Under the pieces are notes generated by a model, which had not been told where the DNA came from, did no database searches, and saw only the letters and a program-made list of their open reading frames with translations. Source: an uncultured bacterium (GTDB taxonomy: Bacteria; Patescibacteriota; Saccharimonadia; UBA4664). Taken from it: 64,000 bases of DNA. Where the stretch lies: assembly GCA_963740635.1 (NCBI GenBank), contig CAVUEQ010000001.1, positions 81,026-145,025 on the forward strand, written 5' to 3'. Both the position numbers and the translations under genes were made by a program. Positions 864 through 55,492 of the stretch are shown here, in pieces (positions within the stretch are counted from its first letter, which is position 1; each line of letters begins with the position of its first letter).

Positions 864-954
864 TAGGGTGTAACCGTGTGAAGGTGTGCGCGTACCAGGT
901 CGCCTCGATGTAAATCGAAGATTCCGGGGACTAGCGGGTGGAAACAGCCGAAGC

Positions 955-10782: not shown

Positions 10783-10785
10783 CCC

Positions 10786-11163
10786 TCAGGATAAGAGCTC
10801 GAGTTTTATGCCGGGTAGTCCCTGATACGTTTTATAGAGTGATTTATCGAGTGTAACAAAGTGACTTACACCGTGGCGGATAGCGGTAGCCAGTTGAAGG
10901 GCATCTTCGTAGTCCTTGGTGCGGGTGTTGATGAAAGCCCATTCGAAGTCGGCGGCGTCTAGTGGCAAGATGGAGTAGTCGGCTAGAAATTGGCGCAGTA
11001 TGGGCAGAACAGTAACGGACGTGCCGAAATGAACAACCAGGTGGGCTGTGAGGGCTGAGATATAAAGTACACCATTCGCGTACCGTTGCAAGATTTGCCT
11101 GGCGCTGGCTTGGCGGGTCCGGTCTAGCAGGATTTCGAGTAGGATGTTGGCGTCGAGGAAGAC
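10786..11163 (-). CDS. vapC: PIN-domain toxin (VapC-like); start codon unresolved
   Basis: PIN-like sequence EVFLDANILLEILLDRTRQ...DYEDALQLATAIRHGVSHFVTLD lies immediately downstream of an antitoxin gene. No ATG/GTG/TTG occurs in frame near the expected N-terminus (codons read AAT ACG GTC GCT AAT ACC GGC GAG GTC). The 5' coordinate is therefore approximate. Confidence 0.65.
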   Translation of the reverse strand, partial: VFLDANILLEILLDRTRQASARQILQRYANGVLYISALTAHLVVHFGTSVTVLPILRQFLADYSILPLDAADFEWAFINTRTKDYEDALQLATAIRHGVSHFVTLDKSLYKTYQGLPGIKLELLS

Positions 11164-11173
11164 CTCGCCGGTA

Positions 11174-11437
11174 TTAGCGACCGTATTTCTTGGCGATGGA
11201 GTCACGGTAGATTTCCTTGATGGGCGCGTTTGGATCGAAGGGCGACGGCTGTTTGGGTGCGGCATCAAAGGCGCGTAAGCCCGCGAGCGGCTGCCGGTTT
11301 TGGAGTTTGGGCTCGGCAGGACTGAGGCGGACCGGTTGCTTGAAACGGTGCTTGACGACGACTTCTTCGCCGGCCAGTACCCGGTCCAGCACTTGGTCGA
11401 GGTGTGCGCGTAGCTCTTTGGCGCCAATTGTCTTCAT
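11174..11437 (-). CDS. Phd/YefM-type antitoxin
   Basis: 87 aa. The N-terminus MKTIGAKELRAHLDQVLDRVLAGEEVVVKHRFKQPV is typical of Phd/YefM antitoxins. It sits directly upstream of the PIN gene. Confidence 0.75.
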   Translation of the reverse strand: MKTIGAKELRAHLDQVLDRVLAGEEVVVKHRFKQPVRLSPAEPKLQNRQPLAGLRAFDAAPKQPSPFDPNAPIKEIYRDSIAKKYGR

Positions 11438-11500
11438 AGTTGAAGTTTACCTTAGGTTTACTTTGGAGTCAAAGTGATGTTGGTCGGCCAGCACAGTCAG

Positions 11501-11529
11501 TTGAATCTGAGAGCCAAAGCTATTATGCT
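11501..11529 (+). promoter_or_regulatory. Candidate promoter of the Kelch-repeat gene (TTGAAT-17-TATGCT)
   Basis: -35 at 11501-11506, 17-nt spacer, -10 at 11524-11529. These are followed by AAGGAG (11537-11542) and GTG 11549. Confidence 0.45.
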
Positions 11530-11548
11530 AATGGTTAAGGAGTTGTGA

Positions 11549-14500: not shown

Positions 14501-16327
14501 ACCACGCTTACTAACGGCACGGCAGGGCGAACTCGTTTTGCCGGCGGGTTCGTTCATAACGGCTACTTGTATACTTTTGGCGGCTACAATAACAGTACCA
14601 GTGCCACAACGAAAATGTACTGGACACGCCTGGATCCCACGACCGGCAATTTGGGGTCGGACGCGGCAACGCAGCAGTGGTCTTCAACCAACATCGGTAA
14701 CTTTGGTAGTCCGTATGGCTTGGCGCAAGCCAGAGGAGCGACAACGGCGACAGCTGTGGACGGGCATTTTTACATACTGGGTGGATGTTCTGCGACAATG
14801 GCTTCAACTGTTTTTAAAGCGTGTGGGACCTTGGTGACGACTACGAATTCGGTGGAGGTGTACCTTCCGAACAACGGCGGGACCGGGCAGACCGGGACGT
14901 GGTGTAGTACTTCTCCGACCTGTGCTCGAGTCTTGCCAAACGCCAAAGCGGATGCGGCGGCGGTGGCTTATAACGGTATTATCTATAGTATTGGCGGATG
15001 CACGGCGTATACGTCGGGTGTGTGTTCGACATGGTCGTCAGAAGTTAAGAGTAATCCGATAGCGTCGGATGGGACGCTCAGTGCAAGTTGGGCGACGGAG
15101 AATTCACTGACCACCGCGACTGGATTGCTGCAAGCTGTGGCCTATAACGGGTATATTTATGTGCTCGGTGGATGCATAAGTGCGAGTTGTAATACAACGA
15201 ATCCGGCGGCTGTCGCGACAGTGCTGTTCGCGACAGTTTCGAGTACCGGGGTGCTTGGTTCGTGGACGGCGGCCTCGCACAACATGGGGACGGCCCGTCG
15301 TGCTTTCGGGGCGGTGATTTCGAGCGGGTACATTTACGCGATCGGTGGGGAGGACGCGTCTGGTAGCAAGCTCTCGAGCACGGAATACGCATTGCTGGAT
15401 CCTACCACTGGAGATGTGGGCTCGTGGACTTCTGGCAACGCTTTTACGACGGCCCGGGCCCGGCATAGCGTGGCGGTGTACAACGGGGTGATTTATGTGG
15501 TCGGGGGGATAGATGGCAGCAGCAATACCTTATTGGACGTGCAGTATGCGGCCCTTAGCACGTCAGATGGGTCGATTGGGACTTGGGCGAATACGACAGA
15601 TATTCCGCGCGGCATGATATCCCGGCAAGTTGTGACGGCCAATGGGTATATGTATTTCCTGGGCAACGAGGGGACCACGACTGAGGTGTCCTACGCGGAC
15701 ATAAATGCTAATGGCACACTCGGGCTGCTATATGATCAGCCGAATGCTTTGGCTGGGGCACATGCCCATGGTGCGGCTGTGCAGTCTAATGGATTCATAT
15801 ATATATTAGGCGGATGCACGTTGAGCAGCGGAAACTGCAGTACAGTTTCGACCACCACCGAGTATGCCGGTCAGAAGGCGATTTCGCGGGCGGCGCATTA
15901 TTCGAAGCTGTGGGAGACGCAGGGCATCGATACGGCCCCGTCACAGATTGTGGTAAATGGGACTAGCTCGGGGGGAAGTAAGGTATCGACGATTTTGCGC
16001 ACATCGAGCAGTTTCGATCCCGTGCTCGGTATCCCACAGGTAATAAACCCAACTCAGTTCAATACATATTACCGCGTCTATCCGCTAAACTCGAGCGGTG
16101 TGAATGTGGGTGTGGCCAAGACTTATGCGATGGTGGTTATTATGGACGACACGCAGGCCGGGACATTTCCGGATGTGAACACGGGTGGCATTCAGACGAC
16201 GGTGACTAGCATTACCTTGTACTACCACGCCAACCCGAGCCGGCGATTGCGGCACGGGGCGTCGTTCTCGAATGTGGGCTGCAACATCGTGCCGGCGAAC
16301 GGGTGTATTTTGGACACGGCGCCTTAG
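11549..16327 (+). CDS. Giant N-terminally anchored Kelch-repeat surface protein (1,592 aa)
   Basis: GTG start with an AAGGAG RBS. An Arg/Trp-rich N-terminal tail is followed by a TM helix (VHAVVIGVILAGIIAPV). I counted 18 blades by the xGxxYxxGG signature (NGYMYQLGG, NGYLYIVGG, NGYVYITGG, NGYIYVLGG and others), with the recurrent DG(S/T)(L/I)GxW. A non-Kelch C-terminal domain of about 170 aa ends ...YYHANPSRRLRHGASFSNVGCNIVPANGCILDTAP. Confidence 0.9.
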   Translation: MDLRRKADNLLALILQTDWRKIARRWYWRGRRPVLGIWRRVQSGWKGLRQLRWRDLRQMGRRVGRQLRRLDIRKPVHAVVIGVILAGIIAPVSDWVANNERYRLDGPRADVVEKPSPKLKSKLLYDKAKKASVFNADGEKATSEDAKDALTSRVGGGEEKTAQLYSATLPDRATDGIDVRDNVNKVSVKFRPLFGVMDGQARSGRVIYPLKGQDGAMVYTPKANAIKEDILLQSAPGNKAEYSYQLELPDSLAARLGSDGSLGFYAGDPKLFGNITFGSDKDRDLVEDARKKADKNTLLFTIPAPTITQGAKPAGNPQAKFSLDGKKLTVHVTGLAGAAYPLSIDPTFYIASTADFLLGSSDDNVDISQANQVGRAALTGGSLQTWASTAYNLSFTKIPSGTSTTNFAFGIAVYNGYMYQLGGHDTGTTDVAYAPISLTTGDLTSGFTALTSFQTGRVGMQAFGYNGYLYIVGGENAAGTTIYATTEYAKLTDTGAISADSGCGTPWCYGTNLNTARAFFAAAQYQGVLYVFGGSTSDSPTLNGTLTKTGEYSRIGGDGSIGSWTTNTNDLPSNRDRFSAAAYNGYVYITGGLDTTTTVTSAVSYAPINSDGTLGAWVSTTAFPTARRDHGLGMERGHMYIYGGCPFGNPCNSGDSFNDTNYAVVNADGSIGQWQQTNNMNNARSMMATTFYNGWLYSAGGCSRENAGANDCRSEKSNIFKTTFDLPGRFDNGIQTLMTTPPYNNNGIGTARFGGQSVALNGYLYLVSGCASTAANCNNAYTSSVEYSTINADGSLGTWASAGTMIASAGGTNKAGRVGHAVVAYNTKIYIIGGLEYTNGNADSWRGDTVSAVQASNGTLGTWTNETNVFPTANGSAVRGFGTAVIWHNNIYYLGGRDSTTTVYTDIFRATLTGNTLGTWATAKQTNGSTAQVLNNARWGHSGGIWGNWIYVVGGQSNTTGTYLSSANSVERLNLNNDGTFASDTTLTNGTAGRTRFAGGFVHNGYLYTFGGYNNSTSATTKMYWTRLDPTTGNLGSDAATQQWSSTNIGNFGSPYGLAQARGATTATAVDGHFYILGGCSATMASTVFKACGTLVTTTNSVEVYLPNNGGTGQTGTWCSTSPTCARVLPNAKADAAAVAYNGIIYSIGGCTAYTSGVCSTWSSEVKSNPIASDGTLSASWATENSLTTATGLLQAVAYNGYIYVLGGCISASCNTTNPAAVATVLFATVSSTGVLGSWTAASHNMGTARRAFGAVISSGYIYAIGGEDASGSKLSSTEYALLDPTTGDVGSWTSGNAFTTARARHSVAVYNGVIYVVGGIDGSSNTLLDVQYAALSTSDGSIGTWANTTDIPRGMISRQVVTANGYMYFLGNEGTTTEVSYADINANGTLGLLYDQPNALAGAHAHGAAVQSNGFIYILGGCTLSSGNCSTVSTTTEYAGQKAISRAAHYSKLWETQGIDTAPSQIVVNGTSSGGSKVSTILRTSSSFDPVLGIPQVINPTQFNTYYRVYPLNSSGVNVGVAKTYAMVVIMDDTQAGTFPDVNTGGIQTTVTSITLYYHANPSRRLRHGASFSNVGCNIVPANGCILDTAP

Positions 16328-16379
16328 AGGGCCGAAGGTTAACCGGTTTGACTTCATTCTAGTTCATGGGGCATGATGG
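15811..16379 (+). repeat. Copy 1 of the 569-nt repeat (3' end of the Kelch gene plus 52 nt downstream)
   Basis: It aligns without indels to 18013-18581 at a constant offset of 2202 nt. The first 50 nt match at about 74%. Nt 15860-16210 match at about 87% (hand count). Nt 16211-16379 are identical. Confidence 0.95.
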
Positions 16380-18003
16380 TTTGGTGGACATAAGCGTAAA
16401 GGGAAATAAATTGCTTAGAAAGTTTTGTTCTGCAGTCAGTTCGATAATGATGATTCTGTGTACACTTGTACCCGCTGGACAGGTGTCTGCGGAATCGGGA
16501 GAGCGTATACTTTTTACTGGAGGAGATGACTCCCAAACACTCATAAGCATTAAACCTGATGGCTCAAACCGTCATGTGATCGGGGCTGGCACAGAGCTAA
16601 CCGTATCGCCGGATGGCAAGAAGTTTGCATTTCTGCGATACACCGCTGTGTCAGGTGGTCTTGAGCTATTTGTAATGAACTCAGACGAGACGGGAGTTAG
16701 GAACATATCGCAAGCAGACGAGGGTCAATTTGTTGGTCCTGATTATTCGTGGTCGCCGGATAGCACGAAGATTGTTTACGAAAAAGCTGTTGATGACAAC
16801 GGAGTTGCTTTATTTGTCGTCAACATCGATGGGACTGATGACACACTTCTGAGGCCACATGTGCCAATAGTGTCAGCATACTTACCCAAGTGGTCGCCAG
16901 ATGGGCAGAAGATACTATTTACAGGTACGGACGATGACTTTGAGTTCCAAGGGGTGTATGTAATGGATGCCGATGGTCGGAATGCCGAATTGTTGGTCAA
17001 TGATGCCCTTAACGCTTCGTGGTCGCCCGATGGAGCGAATATTGCGTTTGAGGCGGATTTCTACTCAACACAGGGGAAGGAAATAGCCGTTATGAATGCA
17101 GACGGCAGTAGCCCTGTCAGGCTAACTTATGATAATGGGGCAGACATTGACCCCGTGTGGTCACCCGATGGCACGCGCATTTTGTGGTTGGCAGGTGGCC
17201 AGGCATATACGATAAGTGTTGATGGGTCGGATCGAAGACATATCAACCAAATCCAAGGATCGAGCTTGCAAACCGGCGCACGTTGGTCGCCGGACGGAAC
17301 AAGGGTAGTATTCGGCTTACTTTTGCCGCCGACTGCCGGACCTCCAAACGTATATCGCTTGTTTACTGCCTCGGCGATGGGTGGAGATGAGCTGGAAGTG
17401 AGTGCCGAAGGGGCCAATGTCCCTATGTGGGCGTACGTCGATGACACGCCAGGAGTAACAGATCCTAGGTCCTGTACGATTACTGGTACTGCTGGTGACG
17501 ATATCCTGCATGGGACACCAGGCAACGATGTAATATGTGGGCTCGGAGGTGATGACAAGATTTACGGCAACGGGGGAGTAGATACATTGTACGGTGATGC
17601 TGGAGAAGATACTCTAGATGGCGGTCCGGGAAACGACAGACTTTATGGCGGTGACGGGAATGACAAACTGGACGGTGGCGGGGGTAATGATACGCTATAT
17701 GGTGAAGCAGGAAACGATACAGTTGATGGCAGTGCGGACGATGATATCGTCTCGGGCGGAGTGGGCGACGATACAGTGCGGGGAGGGACTGGCGTTGACT
17801 CGGTCTACGGAGATGACGGGAACGATGTGATAGAGGGCAATGGTAGCGATGACATTCTATTCGGTGGAGATGGCATAGACCAATTATCTGGTGGAACTGG
17901 CAACGACCAGCTTGATGGTGGCGCTGGTACGCCGGATAGTTGTGACGGTAACGGTGGCACAGACACCGCCGTAAATTGTGAAATCTCAACCAATATTCCC
18001 TAG
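16366..18003 (+). CDS. Secreted TolB-like PD40 beta-propeller protein with C-terminal RTX-type Ca-binding repeats
   Basis: Six PD40-like repeats are visible ([68 protein letters not shown]). Nonapeptide repeats follow ([53 protein letters not shown]). The signal peptide is [28 protein letters not shown]. The likely true start is TTG 16411, after AAAGGG. The gene is visibly more A+T-rich than its flanks. Confidence 0.8.
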
Positions 18004-23030: not shown

Positions 23031-24176
23031 ATGAGTAGAAGGGATATCCTTCGAACCCATTACACAGGGTTATTGAGAAGGGCCGGCGCCTGGGCAGGTC
23101 TTGGTGCGTTGATGGCGAGCATGTTTGTCCCAACGGGAGCAAGTGCGGTCGGGCAACTGACGGAGCGTTCGCTCACTCTTGGGTCATCGAAGATTAGTAC
23201 ATCGACAACTTACCTATATGGCTTTAAGCCGGCGACCACGACAGCTGTCGGGTCAGTGAAGTTTCAGCTGTGTACGTCTCCGCTGGAGAACGTTTCTTGT
23301 ACCGGCCCGTCCGGTGCCGACTCATCAGTGCCAGGCGCCCTCACTCTGGGTGGTCAGATCTCAGGGTTTTCGAAGAGTAATGGTACAAACAACCCGTCTC
23401 CGACTGCGAACGTGATTTGGATAGAGAATGGTACCCCGCAAAGCTTAACAAGCGGTACAGCTTCGACTGTTCAGTTTGCGACGATTACAAACCCCTCGAC
23501 TGTCAACCAGACGTTTTACGCGCGCATTACGACCTATGCTGAAACCGCCGGTAGCACTGAGGTAGACTATGGTGCGGTAGCGGTATCGACGGCTGCCCAG
23601 ATTACTGCGAGTGCAAACGTTCAAGAGCAATTAGCGTTTTGTGTATACACCGGGGCTAATTGTGGCGCCGGTGGTTCGACTGTGAACGTCGGTACGACAT
23701 CGGATAACATTTTAAACACCAGCACCCCTACGGGCGGGACATCCAAAATGGATGCGTCGACCAACGCATCCTCAGGGTACGTCATAACGTACATAACGAC
23801 CACCATTGCTGGACACCCGAGCGCATCGTTTACATCACTTAACGACACGATTACAGATGCCGGTAGCTCAAACGTACCTGATCCCGGAGATGGTGTAGCA
23901 ATTTTCGGAATAAACCTCAAAGCTAACAGCACCTTGGGAGGCGGCTCCCTAGGAGCGAACTCGTCAGGTGGTTCAGGTGTGGCAGTTGGGTCGTATGCTG
24001 TAGCGGATCAAATCGCTTTTGTAGCCGGATCTACGCCGCAAACGGTAGCTAACAGTGCCGGTGGGCCCTCTGACACAACCACCTTCACAGTCAGTTACGT
24101 GGCTCAAGCCGGTACGACATCCAAGGCCGGCCAATACAGTGCACTGTTCACCTACGTCTGCACCGGTACATTCTAA
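23031..24176 (+). CDS. Secreted two-domain beta-sandwich surface protein, paralogue family member (possibly WxL-like); RR-containing signal peptide
   Basis: MSRRDILRTHYTGLLRRAGAWAGLGALMASMFVPTGASA is followed by the conserved mature N-terminus GQLTERSLTLGSS. The C-terminus is AGQYSALFTYVCTGTF*. It is A+T-richer than the two downstream paralogues. Confidence 0.8.
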   Translation: MSRRDILRTHYTGLLRRAGAWAGLGALMASMFVPTGASAVGQLTERSLTLGSSKISTSTTYLYGFKPATTTAVGSVKFQLCTSPLENVSCTGPSGADSSVPGALTLGGQISGFSKSNGTNNPSPTANVIWIENGTPQSLTSGTASTVQFATITNPSTVNQTFYARITTYAETAGSTEVDYGAVAVSTAAQITASANVQEQLAFCVYTGANCGAGGSTVNVGTTSDNILNTSTPTGGTSKMDASTNASSGYVITYITTTIAGHPSASFTSLNDTITDAGSSNVPDPGDGVAIFGINLKANSTLGGGSLGANSSGGSGVAVGSYAVADQIAFVAGSTPQTVANSAGGPSDTTTFTVSYVAQAGTTSKAGQYSALFTYVCTGTF

Positions 24177-24193
24177 AATAGCCTAATCGACAA

Positions 24194-24220
24194 TCCGCCA
24201 CCTCTCGGTGGTGGATTTTT
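24194..24220 (+). terminator. Intrinsic terminator
   Basis: TCCGCCACC-tctc-GGTGGTGGA (9-bp stem with one mismatch) is followed by TTTTT. It lies 18 nt after the stop of 23031..24176. Confidence 0.75.
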
Positions 24221-24245: not shown

Positions 24246-24274
24246 TTGAGTGTTCGCTTTGTGTTCGGTATAAT
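24246..24274 (+). promoter_or_regulatory. Promoter module copy A (TTGAGT-gttcgctttgtgttcgg-TATAAT)
   Basis: One of four copies of a 29-nt promoter whose 17-nt spacer is also conserved. The other copies are at 39646, 40186 and 40894. Confidence 0.6.
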
Positions 24275-24317
24275 GAATGAGAGGTGGGGTTTATACTGGA
24301 AACAGAAGGGGAATGGT

Positions 24318-24629
24318 ATGCCGACGGTAGATTTTACACTGGAAGACTTACGAAAAGTCGTAAAAGAGGAGATCAAGAGCGAACTCGTCAAGGAACGGGA
24401 GGCTACGAAAGGGATGATCCAGGATGCCTTGGTGGCCGAGCGGAAGGTGACGCAGCGGATGATTTCGGAGGGTACGGAAGATGTTAAGCAAGACCTGAAG
24501 CAGTTTGTGGCGGACGAATTTGTGAGTTTTTGGGACAATAACCTCGGGCCGGCGTTTGATGAGTTGCATGGAGAATTTGCGAAGTTAAAGGCGCAAATGC
24601 AGAGGGCGGGCCGGGCCATGGGCCGGTAG
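24318..24629 (+). CDS. Small charged, probably coiled-coil protein (103 aa)
   Basis: ATG 24318 follows AAGGGG. The upstream part of the listed ORF 24219.. overlaps the promoter module. The sequence is MPTVDFTLEDLRKVVKEEIKSELVKEREATKG... Confidence 0.6.
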   Translation: MPTVDFTLEDLRKVVKEEIKSELVKEREATKGMIQDALVAERKVTQRMISEGTEDVKQDLKQFVADEFVSFWDNNLGPAFDELHGEFAKLKAQMQRAGRAMGR

Positions 24630-24681: not shown

Positions 24682-25788
24682 ATGAAAACAAAGATAATTT
24701 TAGCCCGGGTGATGCTTGCGGGGCTGATGACGCTGTTCATCAGCCAGTTTGGTGTCGTGGAGGCAGCGGGTCAGCTGACGGGCCGGAGCGTGACGCTGTC
24801 GAATTCGGCCGGGGCTCCGGCGGCGCAGACGAGCACTTACACAGCGACGTTTACCTTGGCTTCGTCGGGGCAGACGCTGGGTTCGATAATGCTTGAGATT
24901 TGCGATTCGCCGTTGTTGACGGCCTCTTGTCTGAATTCGGGTAATTCGAACGGCGCGACGTTTACCGGGGCGACGTTTGGCAGCGTGACCTGCGCGGTTT
25001 GTAATGGTGGCGCCTGGTCGCTGGGGACGGCCAGCGGTAATTTGGCCTACGTGACGCATTCGGCGGCGGCGGTGACGGGTACGCCGGCGGTGACGGTGGT
25101 GCTGAATAATGTGACCAATCCAAATGCGAATAACAAAGAATTTTATGTGCGGATCTCAACATACAGTGCCACCAATACGTCGGCGCCGGCGTATCCGGGG
25201 ACTGACTTTGGCGGGGTAGCTCTCAGTACAGCCCAGCAGCTGACTGTGAGCGGCGTGATGCCCGAGAGTCTGGTGTTTTGCGTGGGCACGAGCGGGACGG
25301 ACTGCACGAACATTGCCGGCTCGAGCGTGGATCTGGGGACGTTTTCGCCGGTGGCTACAAATTCCGGCACGAGCGTGATGAGCGCGAGTACGAATGCGGG
25401 TTCGGGGTATATTATTACAATTAACGGCACCACCCTCACGAGTGGGGCGAATAATATTCCGGCAATGGGCACGCAGAGCTTAAACTCGGCCGGGTGTTCG
25501 CCCAGCTGCTCGTCGGCCACCGGCACCAGCCAATTTGGGACGAACGTGCGCGATAACGCCACGCCCAACGTGGGTACGGATGTGTCCGGGACGGGTACCG
25601 CGACCGGCTCGGGCGGGTACAATACGGCTGATAGCTTCCGGTTCTTCACCGGTGACACGGTGGCCGGCGTGGGCGGCGTGACCAAGGCCAACTTGTTTAC
25701 GAATTCATACATCGTGAACGTGGGCGGCGACCAAGCGGCGGGTGTGTATTCGGCCACCATGACCTACATCTGCACGGCGACGTTCTGA
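24682..25788 (+). CDS. Secreted two-domain beta-sandwich surface protein, paralogue family member (possibly WxL-like)
   Basis: Signal peptide MKTKIILARVMLAGLMTLFISQFGVVEA. The mature N-terminus is GQLTGRSVTLSNS. It carries the family motifs AMGTQSLNSAGCSPSCSS, SQFGTNVRDNATPNVGTD and FRFFTGDTVAG. It ends AGVYSATMTYICTATF*. Confidence 0.85.
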   Translation: MKTKIILARVMLAGLMTLFISQFGVVEAAGQLTGRSVTLSNSAGAPAAQTSTYTATFTLASSGQTLGSIMLEICDSPLLTASCLNSGNSNGATFTGATFGSVTCAVCNGGAWSLGTASGNLAYVTHSAAAVTGTPAVTVVLNNVTNPNANNKEFYVRISTYSATNTSAPAYPGTDFGGVALSTAQQLTVSGVMPESLVFCVGTSGTDCTNIAGSSVDLGTFSPVATNSGTSVMSASTNAGSGYIITINGTTLTSGANNIPAMGTQSLNSAGCSPSCSSATGTSQFGTNVRDNATPNVGTDVSGTGTATGSGGYNTADSFRFFTGDTVAGVGGVTKANLFTNSYIVNVGGDQAAGVYSATMTYICTATF

Positions 25789-26798
25789 TGCGGCGGCGGC
25801 TCGCCCAGATCGCGGTTCTGGCGCTGGGGCTGATGCCGCTGGGGGCTCAGGGGGCGGCCTTGGCGCCGCGCAACGTGGTGGCGGGATCGAGCGGGCAGGG
25901 CGTGAGCACGAGTTATGTGGCTAATTTTACAACGGGGACGACGGCCAATATTGGCTCTATAAAATTTGAATTTTGCACGACGGCCACCGGCGCCTGCACA
26001 ATGCCGGGCGGCGTGGTGACCACGAGCTCGTGGCTGACGGCCCAAAGCGGGGCGGTCGGTTTTACGCTTGATAATACTACCAACGGCGCGCCGTTTATTA
26101 CGCGGGTGGCGGCCAACATTAACACCGGGACGGCCCTGAGCTACACGCTGAACCCGATTACCAACCCGGCGGCGACGAACACAACGTATTATGTGCGGGT
26201 AACGACGTATACGGGCTCTGACGGCGCTACCGGGCCGACTGACACCGGGACCGTGGCCATGAGTACGGCCGAGCCGGTGCAGCTGACGGGCGTGACGCCG
26301 GAGATTTTGGTGTTTTGCGTGGGCACGAGCATTGCCGGCAACTGCACGACGATTTCGGGCAACACGATCGATTTCGGGGACTTTTCGCCGGTGGCGACGC
26401 GGTCGGGCACGAGCGTGATGCAGGCCCAAACCAATGCTGCCAACGGTTATACGATCACGGTGAACGGCACCACGATGGCGTCGGGTGTGAATACGATTCC
26501 GGGGCTGGCGGTGCAGACGGGCAGTGTGATTGGCACCAGCCAGTTTGGGCTGAACCTGCGGGCTAATTCCACGCCGGCGGTGGGCGCTGACCCGGGCGGG
26601 GCCGGCAGCGGTACGTTTACCGGCGCCTACGGCACGGCCGACCAATACCGGTTCGCCAGCGGCGACAGCGTGGCCTCGGCGGCCTTGCCGACCAACGCCA
26701 ACACGTTTACCTCGAGCTACATCGTGAATATCGGCGGCGCGCAGGCGGCCGGGGTGTATACCGCGACCATGACTTATATCTGCACAGCCTCGTTCTAG
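25788..26798 (+). CDS. Secreted two-domain beta-sandwich surface protein, paralogue family member (possibly WxL-like)
   Basis: Its start overlaps the previous stop (TGATG). Signal peptide MRRRLAQIAVLALGLMPLGAQGA. Family motifs include SQFGLNLRANSTPAVGADP and YRFASGDSVAS. It ends AGVYTATMTYICTASF*. Confidence 0.85.
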   Translation: MRRRLAQIAVLALGLMPLGAQGAALAPRNVVAGSSGQGVSTSYVANFTTGTTANIGSIKFEFCTTATGACTMPGGVVTTSSWLTAQSGAVGFTLDNTTNGAPFITRVAANINTGTALSYTLNPITNPAATNTTYYVRVTTYTGSDGATGPTDTGTVAMSTAEPVQLTGVTPEILVFCVGTSIAGNCTTISGNTIDFGDFSPVATRSGTSVMQAQTNAANGYTITVNGTTMASGVNTIPGLAVQTGSVIGTSQFGLNLRANSTPAVGADPGGAGSGTFTGAYGTADQYRFASGDSVASAALPTNANTFTSSYIVNIGGAQAAGVYTATMTYICTASF

Positions 26799-27145
26799 GA
26801 AGTGCGGCCGAAGGCCCCAAGTTTGCGGCCCAGCTTGTAGTGAGCGTGCGTGATTATGCGCTCTAGGCGCGTGATTTCGCGCGCGAGCCGGCGGCGGCCG
26901 GTTTCGGTGAGGCGGTAGCGGCGGGCGATTTGGCGTTCATCCGCGGGGATGGCTTCGAGCAAATGTCTTGTAAGCAAGCGGTTTAGAACCTTATATGTAG
27001 TTCCGGTAGTCATGATGAGTGAGCTATTTGAATCCGCTGCCACCTGATTTCGGACGGCGTAGCCGTGAAACGGGTTCTGGGTGAGCGCCAGCAGGACATA
27101 AAACTCATGGGTGGTCAGGGTGTCGTTTAGGGTGAAATTACTCAT
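26795..27145 (-). CDS. PadR-family transcriptional regulator
   Basis: 116 aa. The winged-helix pattern HEFYVLLALTQNPFHGYAVRNQV...GTTYKVLNRLLTRHLLE...RRYRLTETGRRRL is typical of PadR. Confidence 0.8.
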   Translation of the reverse strand: MSNFTLNDTLTTHEFYVLLALTQNPFHGYAVRNQVAADSNSSLIMTTGTTYKVLNRLLTRHLLEAIPADERQIARRYRLTETGRRRLAREITRLERIITHAHYKLGRKLGAFGRTS

Positions 27146-27153
27146 ATCTGCGA

Positions 27154-27248
27154 CTATACTCCAAAAGGGTATAGGGTCAAAATTAATGTCTCGGCAAAGC
27201 CATTTTCTCTCGGTTAAATTGGGTAAGGTATACCCTTTGGGAGTATAG
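27154..27248. promoter_or_regulatory. Pair of TATAC-N9-GTATA palindromes (candidate PadR operators) in a divergent promoter region
   Basis: Site 1 is CTATACtccaaaaggGTATAG (27154-27174). Site 2 is TATACcctttgggaGTATA (27229-27247). The two 20-mers are reverse complements of each other with one mismatch. Site 1 begins 9 nt from the PadR ATG. Confidence 0.6.
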
Positions 27249-27352
27249 TTGGGGGCGGTACTTAGGCTGTAATTAGGAGTTCTGCAGGCGCGGTATGGGA
27301 CAGGAGTTGTTAGCTCCGAAGATTTGCCACCAATTCAACTTATGCTATACAC

Positions 27353-38800: not shown

Positions 38801-39638
38801 TGGTGCAGGGGACAGTGGACTGATAGGGGTCTACTCGGAGAAGCCGGCCCTACGACTTTCGCAGCAGGACAGCACTATAAATGGGGGCCGGGCGGTGCCG
38901 GTGGCGCTGGCCGGGCGGGTGCCGGTGAAAGTGTCGACGGAGCATGGGGTGATAATGCCTGGCGATCCGTTGACTGCGTCGAGCACGCCCGGCGTGGCTA
39001 TGAAGGCAAACGGTTCCGGGCGGATCGTGGGTATGGCAATGGAGGCCTACAGCGGCGATGGTGTGGGCAAGGTGATGGCCTTCGTGAACCCGAACTTCTA
39101 CACCGGCGGAGAGGCGCTCCAGAGCAGCACGGCGGCTTCGAGCCTGGTGGTCAACGGCGCACTTTCGGCCAAGGATTTGACGGTGAACGGGACAGCCACG
39201 GTTGGTGATCTGGTGGCGTTGCATTCAGTGACGGCAGGGAATTTGCAGGTGACCGGGATTACTACCGTGGTGGACATCATGGTGAGTGGCCACATTATCA
39301 CAGGTGGAAACGCGCCGGCGGCTTCGATTCTGGCGGCCGCTGGGTCTAATGCCACGGTGACGATCGACGGCAACGACACGAGCGGCACGATCACGATTGT
39401 GACGGGCGACGCGGCGCACGGGGCGGCGCCTGGACCTTCGGCCGGTGAGCTGGCCAAAGCCGTCTATAGCCAGGCTTTTGGTAAGGTGCCGCATATAATT
39501 CTGACACCGGGCGACTCGGCCACGGCGGGGCTGTCGGTGTACCCGGGCCCGAGGGCGGCGGACTACTTTACGGTGGGAGTGACGGGCACGCCGGAGCCGA
39601 ATACCACGTATACGTTTGAGTATCTGACGGTGCAATAG
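29867..39638 (+). CDS. Giant secreted adhesin-like protein (about 3,230-3,260 aa if one extra nt at about 34652 is removed); LVIVD and other beta-propellers, FN3-like, duplicated lectin-like modules
   Basis: ORFs 29948..35020 and 34443..39638 join cleanly: ...ASAAGPGTLK then [T] then AYDISTPGSPTLVGS..., inside an LVIVD-type repeat run (YIYDITNPASP, VVMDISNPAAP, QIIDIANPASP, DVIDVSNPASP, VVDVSSATSP). The N-terminus AAAGINKTLNFQGRLLN is homologous to that of giant 1 (AAATGINKAINFQGKLVN). The signal peptide n-region lies upstream of TTG 29948 with no canonical start. CTG 29867, after GAGGG, is the best candidate. FN3-like GYNVYRT motifs lie at about 35.7-36.1 kb. A second LVIVD run is at 36.36-37.2 kb. 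A roughly 50-aa repeat propeller is at 37.47-38.5 kb. Confidence 0.8.
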
Positions 39639-39645
39639 GATAAGG

Positions 39646-39674
39646 TTGCGTTTTCGGCTTTCGTTCGGTATAAT
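39646..39674 (+). promoter_or_regulatory. Promoter module copy B (TTGCGT-tttcggctttcgttcgg-TATAAT)
   Basis: See 24246..24274. It lies 8 nt after the stop of giant gene 2 and drives hicBA. Confidence 0.6.
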
Positions 39675-39702
39675 CAGATGAAGAAGTAAGGGGTATACTG
39701 AA

Positions 39703-39954
39703 ATGAGAAGAATTGTAAGCAGAAATGCGAGGCCGAACATGGCAACAAGAGATCTGGAGGTGGTCGTCTACAAAGAAGGTGACGGTTATGTAGCGCAATG
39801 TTTGAATGTTAACGTTGCGAGCGAGGGTGACACTGAAAAGGATGCCCTCGAAAATATTCGAGAGGCGCTTGAACTTTATTTTGAGGATTCCGAGCCTGAA
39901 GTGGCGTCGGTTGAGAATGCCCGGGTAACAAAACTTTTGCTTCAAGATGCCTAA
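39703..39954 (+). CDS. hicB: HicB-family antitoxin
   Basis: LEVVVYKEGDGYVAQCLNVNVASEGDTEKDALENIREALELYFED is the HicB/UPF0150 N-terminal fold pattern. It overlaps hicA by 8 nt. The start could instead be ATG 39739. Confidence 0.75.
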   Translation: MRRIVSRNARPNMATRDLEVVVYKEGDGYVAQCLNVNVASEGDTEKDALENIREALELYFEDSEPEVASVENARVTKLLLQDA

Positions 39955-40156
39955 ACGGCCGTCGTCCGGCGATGTTGTGAAGGTCTTAAAGCGTCACGGG
40001 TTCGCGTTCATCAGTCAGCGCGGTTCGCACGCTAAGTTTCGGAGCGGTGGTGGCAACGCTCGCACCGTCATTGTGCCGATGGGTCGGAAGAATCTACGAG
40101 TCGGGACTTTTCGATCGATTGTGGAGCAAGCGGGTATGACCGAAGCCGATTTCTAG
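39947..40156 (+). CDS. hicA: HicA-family mRNA interferase toxin
   Basis: 69 aa. SGDVVKVLKRHGFAFISQRGSHAKFRS...VIVPMGRKNLRVGTFRSIVEQAGMT matches the HicA pattern. Confidence 0.8.
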   Translation: MPKRPSSGDVVKVLKRHGFAFISQRGSHAKFRSGGGNARTVIVPMGRKNLRVGTFRSIVEQAGMTEADF

Positions 40157-40185
40157 TTTTCTACCCCTGGCCCCAGTGAGTAGAC

Positions 40186-40214
40186 TTGCATTTTCGGGTT
40201 TTGTTTGGTAGGAT
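40186..40214 (+). promoter_or_regulatory. Promoter module copy C (TTGCAT-tttcgggttttgtttgg-TAGGAT)
   Basis: See 24246..24274. This is the most degenerate -10 of the four copies. It drives the Bro-N gene. Confidence 0.5.
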
Positions 40215-40243
40215 GGATTCATGATTAGGGGGATACTCAGGGT

Positions 40244-40639
40244 ATGGACGAGGCGCGCATAGCGATATTTCAGGACCGGCAGATCCGCAAAGCTTTGCAT
40301 GACGGCGAGTGGTGGTTTGTGGTGGTTGATGTGGTGGGGGCGCTGACGGATTCGCGGGATCCTCAGCAGTATGTCCAGCGTATGCGGTTGCGGGACGAAG
40401 AGCTTACAAAAGGGTGGGTACAAATTGTACAGACCCTTGACATTCAGACAGATGGTGGCCGGCAGAAGGTTAATTGTGCTAATACCGAGGGGGTGCTGCG
40501 TATTATCCAGTCGGTACCGTCGCCGAAGGCGGAGCCGTTTAAGCGCTGGCTGGCAAAGGTGGGGTACGAGCGGGTGCAGGAGATTGAAAACCCGGAGCTG
40601 GCAACGCGGCGAGATTTTATAGAAATGTTTTCGTCCTAA
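40244..40639 (+). CDS. Bro-N domain protein (DinD/antirepressor-like), apparently short
   Basis: IRKALHDGEWWFVVVDVVGALTDSRDP...NTEGVLRIIQSVPSPKAEPFKRWLAKVGYERVQEIENPE is a Bro-N type sequence. It ends soon after the domain (..RRDFIEMFSS*), so it may be truncated relative to DinD-like proteins. Confidence 0.65.
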   Translation: MDEARIAIFQDRQIRKALHDGEWWFVVVDVVGALTDSRDPQQYVQRMRLRDEELTKGWVQIVQTLDIQTDGGRQKVNCANTEGVLRIIQSVPSPKAEPFKRWLAKVGYERVQEIENPELATRRDFIEMFSS

Positions 40640-40708
40640 TAACAAGACTTGACCCTCCCTGGAAGCCCAGCGGTATGATGGTAGTCCAAGATCAAAAGGA
40701 GGGGAGAA

Positions 40709-40891
40709 GTGAAGCATTTTGAGCTTCAGGAAAAGGCTCGCGAGCAGGGCAAAGTCAGCTTTTGGGCATGGCGGCGGGCCCGGCGCGAGGGCAAGGATTT
40801 GGCTACGGCCGAGAGGGAAGAGCGCGAGCACTTGCGCGAATATCAGGCGGAGTTGCGGGAGTATGCGAAATACGTGCGGGGTGAAGGGTAG
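40709..40891 (+). CDS. Small highly charged protein (60 aa)
   Basis: GTG 40709 follows AAAGGAGGGG. An upstream TTGACC...TATGAT pair is present. The sequence is Lys/Glu/Arg-rich and helical-looking. No family was recognised. Confidence 0.5.
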   Translation: MKHFELQEKAREQGKVSFWAWRRARREGKDLATAEREEREHLREYQAELREYAKYVRGEG

Positions 40892-40893
40892 GC

Positions 40894-40922
40894 TTGCATG
40901 TTCGCATTGTGTTCGGTATAAT
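40894..40922 (+). promoter_or_regulatory. Promoter module copy D (TTGCAT-gttcgcattgtgttcgg-TATAAT)
   Basis: See 24246..24274. It starts 3 nt after the previous stop. Confidence 0.6.
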
Positions 40923-40967
40923 GAGATCTAGAGAGTGCGTTATGATGGGAGTAACAGGAGCTAGACG

Positions 40968-41249
40968 ATGCTGACGAAGGACGATTTGGGACAGATTAAG
41001 ACAATTGTGAATGACGTCGTGGAAGATAAGATAACCAGGGCGGTGGCGCCGCTGGCGACAAAAAGTGAGCTGAACGAGACGGTTCAGAATGCCGTGGCGC
41101 CGCTGGCGACAAAGGTTGATCTGGCCGGTACGGAACGCCGGCTGCAGGCAGCGATTTTGGGCATGGATTTGGCGGGCCGTGACAGCTTCGCCCGGCTGGA
41201 TGACCACGAAGCGCGGCTCACTAAACTAGAGCGGGCCCGGCCAGCATAA
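40968..41249 (+). CDS. Small coiled-coil protein with internal repeat (DUF1640-like pattern)
   Basis: 93 aa. It contains the tandem AVAPLATKSEL / AVAPLATKVDL. These are encoded by an exact 20-nt direct repeat, gtggcgccgctggcgacaaa. The N-terminus LTKDDLGQIKTIVNDVVEDKI resembles that of 24318..24629. Confidence 0.6.
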   Translation: MLTKDDLGQIKTIVNDVVEDKITRAVAPLATKSELNETVQNAVAPLATKVDLAGTERRLQAAILGMDLAGRDSFARLDDHEARLTKLERARPA

Positions 41250-48274: not shown

Positions 48275-48302
48275 TTGGAAAAGTCAAAGGTTATGTGGGC
48301 GC

Positions 48303-48328
48303 GGCCCGCCCCTGTTGAGGGGCGGGCC
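48303..48328. terminator. Bidirectional GC-rich hairpin between convergent genes
   Basis: GGCCCGCCCC-tgttga-GGGGCGGGCC is a perfect 10-bp stem. It lies between the htrA stop (48274) and the stop of 48334..48873. There is no clear U-run. Confidence 0.6.
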
Positions 48329-48333
48329 ACTAG

Positions 48334-48873
48334 TTACCTCGCTTCCGGGTAAGTGACCCTGGTTGGGGCTGCTTCGCTCGGACTGTAGACCTGGAGCGGG
48401 TACAAACCCCCGTAGTTGGTCTCGCGCACATGGCATATCGGAACGAGCAGATGCTCACTCGTAACGACCACGAAGTGGGTGGTGTGCGATGTGGCGGCTC
48501 GCCGCCGCATGTCGCGGACCAGGGCTTCAAGCGCTGGGGCGGTGAAGTCCACGGCGAATGGATCTCGCATTTTGGCAACAGACTCCAGAAGTACGGGTAC
48601 TGGGGTACCTGCCTCCAGATACTGGGCCAGAATCTCCGCGCTGGTGATATGCCGGGGGAGGTCGCCGCCGATGTACACGACGAACTTCGCAGGCGGTTGG
48701 TTTCCTGTGAGTAGCCGGTGGGCGGCGCGCCGGATTTGGACTAGCCCTAGTTGATCAAGTCCGCCCGGTTCTGATTCGTTTGGTTTGCCGTGGCGCAGGC
48801 CGTAGAGCATGAGCTCATAGGGCGTGTTTCGGGTGCGTCGCACGATTACATCACTTACAAGGGTTCGCAGCAT
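48334..48873 (-). CDS. Histidine phosphatase superfamily protein (phosphoglycerate-mutase-like)
   Basis: The RHG motif occurs in LMLYGLRHGKPNE, and the distal His region in FVVVTSEHLL. 179 aa. Confidence 0.55.
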   Translation of the reverse strand: MLRTLVSDVIVRRTRNTPYELMLYGLRHGKPNESEPGGLDQLGLVQIRRAAHRLLTGNQPPAKFVVYIGGDLPRHITSAEILAQYLEAGTPVPVLLESVAKMRDPFAVDFTAPALEALVRDMRRRAATSHTTHFVVVTSEHLLVPICHVRETNYGGLYPLQVYSPSEAAPTRVTYPEAR

Positions 48874-48942
48874 TTCCTGGCCTCCACTAGATCGGTCGAA
48901 AACGAGTGACCGAACTATGACACTGTTTGAGCGTAATTACAA

Positions 48943-52902: not shown

Positions 52903-53640
52903 ATGGCTGACGTAAGCCTCAAAGAACTACTGGAGGCGGGTGCGCATTTTGGGCACCAGACCCGCCGGTGGAACCCGAAGATGAAGCAATATATCTACGG
53001 GGCCCGCGGAGGGGTGCATATTATTGACTTGACCAAGACGGGCGTAATGCTCAAGGAGGCGACCGAGTTTGCTAAGCAGACCGCTGCCGATGGCGGCAAG
53101 GTGCTGATAGTGGGTACCAAGCGCCAGGCAGCGCCGGTGGTGCGCGAAATCGCCGAAGCCAACGGCTTGCCATACGTGAGCGAACGCTGGCTGGGCGGTA
53201 TGCTGACCAACTTCCGCACCATTCGCCTGCAGGTGCAACGCCTCAAGAAGCTCGAGGCGGGCCTGGAGAGCGGCGACTACGCGAACAAGTACAACAAGAA
53301 AGAGTTGCTCGATTTCTCGAACGAGGTGGCGGCGCTGAACCGCATTTTCGGCGGTATTAAAAACATGGACGGCCTGCCGGGTGCGGTGTATGTAGTGGAC
53401 GTGCCGGGCGAGAGCATCGCGGTGGCCGAGTCGCGGCGGCTGGGGATTCCGGTGATCGCGATCGTGGACTCGAACGCTGACCCGGATCTCGTGGACTACA
53501 AGATTCCGGCGAACGACGACGCTATCAAGAGCGTGCGCGTGATTACGAAGGCCGTGGCCGAGGCGGCGGCGGAAGGCGCTAAGCTGCACGCCAGCAAGGC
53601 TGCCGAGAAGGCGGAGAAGGTAGAAGAGGAGGCCAAATAA
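52903..53640 (+). CDS. rpsB: Ribosomal protein S2
   Basis: [34 protein letters not shown] candidate promoter TTGTCT-17-TATGCT and an 8-bp leader hairpin (ATGCGGCC...GGCCGCAT) lie upstream. Confidence 0.95.
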
Positions 53641-54227
53641 TGGCGATTGCGATTGAAGACATCAAGAACCTGCGCGAAAAGACCGGCGCGGGCATGATGA
53701 AGGCCAAGGAGGCGCTGGAGGCTTCGGGCGGCGACTTTGACGCGGCCGTCAAGTACCTGCGCGAAAAAGGCGAGGCTAGCGCCGCCAAGAAAAGCGAGCG
53801 TGAGGCCCGCGCCGGCGTGATCGAGGGTTACGTGCACTCGGGCCGGATTGGCGTGTTGGTGGAGATCAACTGCGAGACCGACTTTGTGGCCCGCACCGAG
53901 GATTTCAAGAATTTCGCGCGCGACATCGCCATGCACGTGGCGGCGGCCAATCCGGAATATTTGAGCCCAGAAGCGGTCCCGGCTGAGGTGGTGGAGAACG
54001 AGAAGACTATCTACCGCAAAGAAGTCGAGGGCAAGCCGGCCGAGATTATCGAGAAAATCGTGGACGGCAAGCTAGCCAAATATTACGAGCAGGTGTGTTT
54101 GGTGAACCAGCCCTTCGTGAAAGACCCCGACCGAAGCGTAGGCAAATTGACCAGTGAATTAATCGCGAAATTGGGAGAAAATATTGTCATTCGTAGATAT
54201 GAGCGGATGGAACTAGGAGGCGTATGA
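53640..54227 (+). CDS. tsf: Elongation factor Ts (short form, 195 aa)
   Basis: IKNLREKTGAGMMKAKEALEASGGDFDAAVKYLREKG...VEINCETDFVART. TAATG overlap with rpsB. Confidence 0.95.
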   Translation: MAIAIEDIKNLREKTGAGMMKAKEALEASGGDFDAAVKYLREKGEASAAKKSEREARAGVIEGYVHSGRIGVLVEINCETDFVARTEDFKNFARDIAMHVAAANPEYLSPEAVPAEVVENEKTIYRKEVEGKPAEIIEKIVDGKLAKYYEQVCLVNQPFVKDPDRSVGKLTSELIAKLGENIVIRRYERMELGGV

Positions 54228-54784
54228 TCAGGTCATTGGTTGAATCGGCGGGTCCGAAAATGGAAAAGGCAGTCCAGCATTTCGCGGAAGATCTGAAGTC
54301 GTTGCGCACCGGCAGGGCGTCGGTGGCCATGCTCGACGGCGTGACAGTGGAGCTATATGGGGTGCCGCAGCCACTGAAGGCGGTGGCCTCAGTGAGCACG
54401 CCCGATGCCCGCTCGCTGGCCGTGGCGCCGTGGGACAAGACGGCGCTGGGCCCGATTGAGAAGGCCATCCGCGAGAACCAGTCGCTGGGGCTAAACCCGG
54501 CCAACGACGGCAGCGTGATCCGTCTGAACATTCCGCCGATGACCGAGGAGCGCCGCCGTGAGGTGGTGAAGAGCCTGGGCTCGAAGGTCGAGGATTGCCG
54601 CATAGTGTTGCGCAATATCCGCCATGATGTGATGAACGACATCAAGAAGATGGAGAAGGCCAAAGAGGCTACGACGGACGACGTGAAGTTCGCCGAGGCC
54701 GAATTGAATAAGAAAATTGAGCAATTTCAGCGCCGCATTGAAGAAATTGAGAGCCTCAAGTCCAAGGAGATCATGGAGGTCTAA
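54224..54784 (+). CDS. frr: Ribosome recycling factor
   Basis: HFAEDLKSLRTGRASVAMLDGVTVELYG...IRLNIPPMTEERRREVVK. It follows tsf directly, with no pyrH between them. Confidence 0.95.
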   Translation: MIRSLVESAGPKMEKAVQHFAEDLKSLRTGRASVAMLDGVTVELYGVPQPLKAVASVSTPDARSLAVAPWDKTALGPIEKAIRENQSLGLNPANDGSVIRLNIPPMTEERRREVVKSLGSKVEDCRIVLRNIRHDVMNDIKKMEKAKEATTDDVKFAEAELNKKIEQFQRRIEEIESLKSKEIMEV

Positions 54785-55492
54785 GTGGTCGATGAGGCTA
54801 TGGCACAGCCGAAAGTGCCCCTGCACCTCGGCCTGATTCTGGACGGCAACCGGCGTTGGGCCCGGGAACACGGGCTGCCGCAGCTCGAGGGGCACCGCCG
54901 CGGGTACGATAACCTGCATAATATTGTGACGGCGGCGGCCGAGCGGGGGGTGAAATATATTTCCGCCTACGTTTTTTCGACTGAGAATTGGAACCGCAGT
55001 CAGGAGGAGGTGAATTACCTCATGGATATGCTGGTGTGGGTGGCCACCAAAGAAATCGACAAGTTTGTCCGCGAGGACATGAAAGTGGTGTTTTTGGGGT
55101 CGCGGAAAAACCTGAGCGCCAAGGTGCTGCGGGCGATCCGCTCGGTCGAGGACAGAACGGCCGGCTGCACCCGGGCGGTGGTGGCATTGTGTTTCAATTA
55201 TGGCGGCCAGGTTGAGGTCGCCGAGGCGGTGGCCCGGATGGTGGACGACGGCGTGAAGTCAGCCGAGGTGACGCCCGGCAAGCTATCCGAATATTTGTAC
55301 CATCCGGAAGTGCCGCCGGTGGATTTGCTGATCCGGAGCTCCGGCGAGCTGCGGACATCCGGGTTCATGATGTGGCGCACGGCATACGCGGAACTGTATT
55401 TTAGCCCCGTGCCGTGGCCGGCTTTTAGCGTTGCGGATTTAGATGCCGCGCTCTTCGAATACGCCGGCCGGCACCGCCGGTACGGAAAATAA
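54785..55492 (+). CDS. uppS: Undecaprenyl diphosphate synthase
   Basis: HLGLILDGNRRWAREHGLP...AYVFSTENWNRS...LLIRSSGELRTSGFMMW. Confidence 0.95.
   Translation: MVDEAMAQPKVPLHLGLILDGNRRWAREHGLPQLEGHRRGYDNLHNIVTAAAERGVKYISAYVFSTENWNRSQEEVNYLMDMLVWVATKEIDKFVREDMKVVFLGSRKNLSAKVLRAIRSVEDRTAGCTRAVVALCFNYGGQVEVAEAVARMVDDGVKSAEVTPGKLSEYLYHPEVPPVDLLIRSSGELRTSGFMMWRTAYAELYFSPVPWPAFSVADLDAALFEYAGRHRRYGK

Follow-up and report, generated by a model that had tools for sequence, protein, structure and literature searches.

Along a 64,000-nt stretch of the chromosome of an uncultured member of the Saccharimonadia (contig CAVUEQ010000001.1; this whole stretch is called the window here), a 29-nt module made of a -35-like hexamer, a spacer, and a -10-like hexamer occurs four times in front of small genes, and the spacer itself is conserved. 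The question raised by this locus is what the conserved spacer is for. The first-pass annotation had offered two answers: a common regulator site embedded in the spacer, or a portable promoter cassette that travels with small accessory genes. The first of these is upheld here, with LexA as the most likely regulator; the second is not. The four modules are very probably σ70-type promoters whose spacer contains a predicted LexA operator (an SOS box, present as the direct repeat GTTC-N7-GTTC), and hicBA, a Bro-N gene, and two genes for small coiled-coil proteins would thus be induced by DNA damage.

The modules lie exactly where the first-pass annotation had placed them, all on the plus strand and all with a spacer of 17 nt:

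24246-24274, plus strand: module A, with -35 TTGAGT (24246-24251), predicted LexA box GTTCGCTTTGTGTTC (24252-24266), and -10 TATAAT (24269-24274); 10 of its 12 hexamer positions match the σ70 consensus

39646-39674, plus strand: module B, with -35 TTGCGT, predicted LexA box TTTCGGCTTTCGTTC (39652-39666), and -10 TATAAT (39669-39674); it begins 8 nt past the stop codon of a giant LVIVD-repeat gene

40186-40214, plus strand: module C, the weakest copy, with -35 TTGCAT, predicted LexA box TTTCGGGTTTTGTTT (40192-40206), and -10 TAGGAT (40209-40214)

40894-40922, plus strand: module D, with -35 TTGCAT, predicted LexA box GTTCGCATTGTGTTC (40900-40914), and -10 TATAAT (40917-40922)

A degenerate 29-nt pattern that fits all four modules, TTGNNTKTTCGSNTTKYGTTYGGTANNAT, finds only these four in the window when up to 3 mismatches are allowed, and it finds nothing in 100 dinucleotide-preserving shuffles of the window. 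A position weight matrix (PWM) built from modules A to D gives its own sites 44 to 49 bits, and the runner-up on either strand of the window scores 5.8. The 29-nt module is a genuine and rare element (4 per 64 kb) that stands far above chance. Its spacer has the core (G/T)TTCG(G/C)-N5-GTT(C/T)GG, a direct repeat GTTC-N7-GTTC whose period is 11 bp, so the two half-sites indeed lie about one helical turn apart. The repeat is exact in modules A and D, deviates at one position in B, and deviates at two in C (TTTC...GTTT).

Judged by sequence, each module would be a σ70-type promoter, with a -35 TTGnnT, a 17-nt spacer, and a -10 TAnnAT, positioned upstream of a gene. Among 67 distinct related sites, 10 have the ATG of a long open reading frame (ORF) 5 to 9 nt past TAnnAT, as is seen for leaderless mRNAs, and this speaks for TAnnAT as a genuine -10.

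GTTC-N7-GTTC is the LexA box of the Alphaproteobacteria and of Caulobacter (PMC8565304; PMC12700426), where one example reads GTTCttgttatGTTC (PMC12700426); PMC7739468 also cites Mazon 2006 on the direct-repeat LexA box. The same box has been reported for Acidobacterium capsulatum. The modules share with the alphaproteobacterial box the half-site, the 7-nt gap, the direct-repeat arrangement, and a T-rich gap. Unlike that box, they are found in a host of the Candidate Phyla Radiation (CPR), their half-site is extended to GTTCG(G), and in the lineages considered here the box is locked into the 17- to 18-nt spacer between the -35 and the -10. The LexA box of Gram-positive bacteria, including Actinobacteria (the Cheo box), is CGAAC-N4-GTTCG. 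It has the same GTTCG half-site, but the Cheo box is an inverted repeat and the modules are direct repeats.

A metagenome collection was scanned with the 29-nt pattern, in which nine positions are left free (loci are cited below by their L numbers). The scan matched 84 stretches with a GC content of 30% to 71%; a collection of viral contigs scanned in the same way gave 0 matches. A mis-spaced control, whose box was longer by one N, yielded just 3 matches in 596 Gb of genomes, all unrelated or due to chance, and none in the window. The consensus of about 70 related sites is TTGnnT-GTTCGGTTTTTGTTCGG-TAtnAT, and the free positions are non-random as well. The conservation of the spacer, which the first-pass annotation had allowed might disappear as more copies were aligned, becomes stronger instead.

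The genes behind these sites point to the regulator. The first downstream gene is lexA at 29 of the 84 loci, representing 25 distinct proteins of about 200 to 240 aa that contain the Pfam domains LexA_DNA_bind and Peptidase_S24; lexA genes of Uhrbacteria, Falkowbacteria, and the "Patescibacteria group" bear a module of the window type. Other canonical SOS genes behind the pattern encode RecN (L052), a Y-family polymerase with an IMS domain (L071), and a radical-SAM SplB-like enzyme (L028), and possible ImuA-like proteins, which have no Pfam match, are found at L070 and L033. Further genes encode PemK-like toxins, a RhuM-Fic protein, and 23S-rRNA-IVP four-helix-bundle proteins, and about 16 to 18 loci encode small coiled-coil proteins homologous to the products behind modules A and D. 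A motif that is centered on lexA and common to recN and translesion polymerases carries the classical signature of a LexA operator.

In a test independent of the DNA pattern, lexA loci were retrieved by protein similarity only, yielding three loci from Saccharibacteria, one from Falkowbacteria, and one from an actinobacterial metagenome-assembled genome (MAG). The direct repeat fills the -35/-10 spacer at all five, with ATTC or TTTC rather than GTTC as the first half-site in three of them (L092, L111, and L110). The five lexA promoters are:

L089, Saccharibacteria: -35 TTGACA, spacer c-GTTCGTACGCTGTTCG-t, -10 TATTAT

L092, Saccharibacteria: -35 TTGTCA, spacer ATTCGCTTAATGTTCGC, -10 TATAAT

L094, Saccharibacteria: -35 TTGACA, spacer a-GTTCGCATTACGTTCGG, -10 TATGAT

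L111, Falkowbacteria: -35 TTGACT, spacer TTCGTTTTTTGTTCGTG, -10 TATAAT

L110, "Actinobacteria bacterium" MAG, GC 67%: -35 TTGATT, spacer TTCGGTTTTTGTTCGGT, -10 TACACT

Since the Saccharibacteria loci carry the box in 3 of 3 cases, the class to which the window belongs uses such an architecture at its own lexA. From one of these loci to another, the distance from the -35 to the box shifts by 0 to 1 nt, indicating that the -35 is an independent element and not part of the operator.

The modules are identical in architecture to many promoters of lexA and other SOS genes, the lexA of Saccharibacteria included, and this suggests a mechanism. A LexA dimer seated in the spacer would deny RNA polymerase access to the promoter. 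When DNA is damaged, LexA would cleave itself under stimulation by RecA, the four promoters would be released at once, and hicBA, the Bro-N gene, and both small coiled-coil genes would be induced. We infer that the LexA of this genome binds the modules and represses them and that damage induces them.

Several points weigh against this assignment. A lexA gene is absent from the 64-kb window (tblastn with 11 LexA queries), and the LexA of this genome is not among the homologues listed in the LexA homology searches. Consequently, the presence of LexA in this genome and of a box at its own promoter is deduced from relatives. Module C is off-consensus in both half-sites and has a poor -10 (TAGGAT). 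The bare GTTC-N7-GTTC, being too short a motif, is not enriched within the window. In addition, the pattern used for the metagenome scan forces the -35, the -10, and the half-sites, so the architecture of its matches is partly imposed, a concern that is mitigated by the lexA loci retrieved by protein similarity alone. In favor of the assignment, Patescibacteria are named in PMC7739468, citing Sanchez-Osuna et al. 2017, among the lineages whose LexA recognizes a direct repeat. That motif (Sanchez-Osuna, Barbe and Erill 2017, Environ Microbiol 19:3465) is a direct repeat as in the modules, a likeness known from the citing paper and not from the consensus; no motif sequence is given in the citing papers examined.

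The alternative that survives best is a regulator other than LexA that binds the spacer repeat and also controls lexA, for example a response regulator for direct repeats spaced by 11 bp, or HicB. Regulators of the OmpR/PhoB type typically recognize direct repeats spaced by one helical turn, and the literature examined contains no binding experiment for this lineage. However, the motif equals the experimentally established LexA box of the Alphaproteobacteria and has the GTTCG half-site of the Gram-positive box. Furthermore, its strongest association is with lexA, followed by recN, the Y-family polymerase, and the radical-SAM enzyme, which is the signature used to define LexA regulons. HicB, for its part, is short here and has no recognized DNA-binding domain. 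Together, these points make another regulator improbable.

Less probable still, and indeed very unlikely, is the portable cassette, a mobile or repeatedly copied promoter-leader unit that would spread with small accessory genes. The modules do share more than the box, since a second -10-like hexamer (described below) is present at a fixed distance in all four, and the genes behind them are of accessory type and lie together within 1.3 kb; members of the coiled-coil family start at a closely conserved 40 to 47 nt from the promoter. Yet modules A to D resemble one another only at functional positions, and both the flanks and the 17 to 19 nt between the hexamers are dissimilar. No shared flanking sequence is present in the four aligned regions, in which terminal repeats and target duplications were judged by eye, with no dedicated repeat search. 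The 14 viral homologues of the Bro-N protein (37 to 58% identity) have no module upstream. The module precedes lexA, recN, and a polymerase gene in many lineages of 30 to 71% GC, and its presence before core genes argues for a regulon and not a mobile element.

That the module is simply the housekeeping promoter consensus of this organism, as its good σ70 hexamers might suggest, has next to no probability and is rejected within the window, given just 4 sites in 64 kb with about 45 genes, the gap between the runner-up PWM score of 5.8 and the 44 to 49 of the modules, and the absence of the box from other promoters. These other promoter-like sites, located before parA, the pilin genes, the surface-protein genes, htrA, and the 60-aa ORF at 40709, use an extended -10, TGcTATAAT, and contain no LexA box. 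They show that the motif is not found upstream of most genes in the window, and the module is therefore not the housekeeping consensus.

Family searches agree with the earlier assignment of the downstream genes as hicBA, a Bro-N gene, and two genes for small coiled-coil proteins. The genes behind the modules, together with one neighbor, are as follows:

24318-24629, plus strand: small coiled-coil protein A, 103 aa (MPTVDFTLEDLRKVV...), between CPR Pam-pilin genes

39739-39954, plus strand: hicB-like antitoxin, matching DUF7387 (1e-6, residues 18-65 of the long form) and the HicB-like phrog_497

39947-40156, plus strand: hicA toxin, 69 aa, matching HicA_toxin (E=2e-15) and phrog_353, with an 8-nt overlap with hicB

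40244-40639, plus strand: Bro-N domain protein, 131 aa, matching Bro-N (E=1e-13), phrog_15286 (4e-33), and PDC-S13 (E=2e-50)

40709-40891, plus strand: 60-aa charged ORF with its own box-less promoter-like site and no LexA box upstream

40968-41249, plus strand: small coiled-coil protein D, 93 aa (MLTKDDLGQIKTIV...), with LATK repeats, from a small uncharacterized family

The hicBA pair has the features of a type II toxin-antitoxin system, a HicA toxin domain and an overlapping small HicB-like partner. The start of hicB is most likely at 39739 (MATRDLEVVVYKEGDGY...) and not at 39703, where the longest ORF begins. In the 286-position PADLOC candidate-defense model PDC-S13, the Bro-N protein covers only positions 1-128, and in phrog_15286 it likewise covers the N-terminal part. 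It is a short form with the Bro-N domain alone and corresponds to the N-terminal half of the longer family models. Coiled-coil proteins A and D and the 60-aa ORF have no significant match in Pfam, NCBIfam, PADLOC, PHROG, or PDB. Homologues of protein A at L006, L022, and L066, and of protein D at L024, L039, L059, and L030, lie behind the same module. The protein D family comprises 79 representative clusters at E<=1e-3 among 1.84 billion.

The coupling of such genes to DNA damage has precedents. SOS-controlled toxin modules include tisAB, yafNO, and dinJ-yafQ of E. coli, and SOS-controlled antirepressors include those of the Gifsy prophages and Tum of coliphage 186. The logic in the window is the same, in that toxin modules and Bro/Ant-type genes are coupled to DNA damage through a LexA box in their promoters. 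The window differs from these systems in having hicBA and a short Bro-N-only protein, another LexA motif, a CPR host, and no prophage context that could be found around the hicBA/bro-N cluster. A second case of toxins behind the same box is provided by PemK/MazF-like genes in soil relatives (L014, L023, L038, and L056). These start 6 nt past the -10 of a LexA-box promoter, and their mRNAs are probably leaderless.

The first-pass annotation had also noted a GGGG(t)ATACT element in the 5' untranslated regions (UTRs) of copies A to C. This element is present, but it is better described as a second -10-like hexamer located 17 to 19 nt past the first -10, and it is more general than claimed, as module D also has one:

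24292-24297, plus strand: second hexamer of module A, TATACT, 17 nt past the -10

39694-39699, plus strand: second hexamer of module B, TATACT, 19 nt past the -10

40232-40237, plus strand: second hexamer of module C, GATACT, 17 nt past the -10, with the bro-N ATG 6 nt further on

40941-40946, plus strand: second hexamer of module D, TATGAT, 18 nt past the -10

A second hexamer of the form TAnnnT, mostly TATACT, lies 16 to 19 nt past the -10 (mode 17 nt) in 18 of 22 promoters of the accessory class, that is, in 4/4 modules of the window and in 14/18 metagenomic promoters of the coiled-coil group. In contrast, it is present in 0/47 promoters of lexA and other genes (Fisher p = 4e-13), and it is also absent from the lexA promoters of Saccharibacteria. 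The hexamer occupies about +12 to +17 of the P1 transcript, and in the coiled-coil genes the start codon follows 20 to 24 nt past it. RNAalifold found no pairs in the four leaders, and an Rfam scan of the window gave no match; the 5' UTR element thus belongs to no Rfam family.

Two functions come to mind for the second hexamer. It could be a σ-dependent promoter-proximal pause element. Such σ70-dependent elements are present at λ PR', phage 82, and lacUV5, and the second hexamer resembles them: it is a -10-like hexamer of the non-template strand with conserved A2 and T6, falls inside the ~20 bases transcribed first, and keeps a fixed distance from the promoter. No Q-like antiterminator is evident here. 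It could equally be a weak second promoter giving a short or absent leader. In favor of this, the bro-N ATG of module C lies 6 nt past the hexamer, as in a leaderless start.

A more ambitious proposal, offered tentatively and on balance rather unlikely, is that Saccharimonadia and related CPR bacteria have a three-hexamer subclass of SOS promoter, TTGnnT-17-TATAAT-17-TATACT, which would serve the small coiled-coil genes, hicBA, and bro-N, with lexA and the repair genes outside it. On this view, the third hexamer would act as a functional checkpoint, either a σ-dependent pause or a LexA-independent second start with a short or leaderless mRNA, and the LTxxDL/LATK coiled-coil family would be a conserved CPR-specific SOS effector, such as an inhibitor of division or of host interaction. 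If such a subclass exists, the accessory class would be set apart in its timing or basal level.

SOS boxes that overlap promoters, as well as SOS-controlled toxins and antirepressors, are already known, and current understanding is not overturned. A LexA motif for part of the Patescibacteria was reportedly published in 2017 by Sanchez-Osuna and colleagues, in a study that is said to concern Parcubacteria, Microgenomates, and Gracilibacteria rather than Saccharimonadia. New here are the four cases from a genome of the Saccharimonadia, the repeated occurrence of the box before genes of the coiled-coil family, and the second hexamer specific to the accessory class. The last of these adds a small point on promoter architecture in bacteria in which transcription has received little study. 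What was an anonymous repeat becomes a testable regulon assignment in a hard-to-culture CPR bacterium with a reduced genome. If the assignment is true, DNA damage controls a toxin-antitoxin pair, an antirepressor-like Bro-N gene, and two members of a coiled-coil family. The four sites and the ~70 related ones supply a ready matrix for mapping the SOS regulon of Saccharimonadia, and a single design with the LexA box embedded in the promoter is common to DNA of 30% to 71% GC, in Patescibacteria and in one lineage of Actinomycetota.

That last lineage, with a GC content of 65-69%, has the direct-repeat module at lexA in place of the usual actinobacterial palindrome. Its loci are L018, L020, L025, L029, L047-L049, L067, L072, L082, L087, and L110, and its relatives bear the NCBI names Candidatus Geothermincolia or Actinobacteria. 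After these, the LexA proteins closest to those of this Geothermincolia-like lineage come from Saccharibacteria, at ~49% identity, and a transfer of lexA between the two is possible.

Other features recur around the LexA-box promoters of the retrieved loci. Tandem boxes are present at L005, L027, L042, and L054, where a second GTTCGGTATTTGTTCG lies ~12 nt after the -10 and upstream of a 23S-rRNA-IVP four-helix-bundle gene, and at L007 an inverted second box lies directly 3' of the lexA promoter. Among 69 distinct LexA-box promoters, 9 (L005, L007, L040, L042, L050, L051, L068, L069, and L075) have a perfect DnaA box (TTATCCACA or its complement) 5 to 10 nt before the -35, far above chance. These are mostly lexA promoters of low-GC Patescibacteria, and the arrangement suggests an input of DnaA at the SOS promoters that bear it. 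At L050, L051, L068, and L073, the gene behind the promoter encodes LexA with a D12-class N6-adenine DNA methyltransferase joined to its C-terminus, a fusion of 510 to 623 aa. In the three Saccharibacteria lexA loci, a 65-aa minus-strand ORF lies upstream of lexA (L089, 750-947; L092, 2636-2833; L094, 2589-2786); these ORFs are equal in length and similar in position, and at L089 another ORF intervenes before lexA.

The window is bacterial chromosome and not phage, and it belongs to the Saccharimonadia (TM7) of the Patescibacteria/CPR. Its ribosomal protein S2 is 88% identical to proteins of Candidatus Saccharimonadia MAGs, and it contains the chromosomal genes rpsB-tsf-frr-uppS-rseP, proS, prfA-prmC, and parAB, together with genes for a LytR-CpsA-Psr protein, a signal peptidase, and HtrA; a tRNA scan of the window found nothing. 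The source contig measures 828,923 bp. Module A and its coiled-coil gene lie among three paralogous genes for CPR Pam-pilus pilins (NF058581, E down to 2e-48), at 23031-24176, 24682-25788, and 25788-26798. The first of these pilin genes is closed by one further feature of this region:

24192-24217, plus strand: terminator-like hairpin that ends the upstream pilin gene, just 5' of module A

Because gene A is followed by no terminator, SOS-induced transcription could conceivably run on into both pilin genes that lie downstream.

Elsewhere in the window, four giant ORFs of 1,538 to 2,994 aa lie at 886-9870, 11549-16327, 29948-35020, and 35022-39638; three of the four have Kelch or LVIVD β-propeller repeats, and the largest is without any Pfam match. 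An RTX/PD40 protein is encoded at 16366-18003; like the Kelch and LVIVD products, it is a surface protein. Sizeable minus-strand ORFs occur within 10783-11548, 26799-27352, 28367-28835, and 48275-48942 (for example, 10786-11427 and 48334-48873), stretches that lie between the annotated plus-strand genes. The order rpsB-tsf-frr-uppS at 52903-55492 has no pyrH between tsf and frr, and EF-Ts is short, at 195 aa; both features fit a reduced CPR genome.

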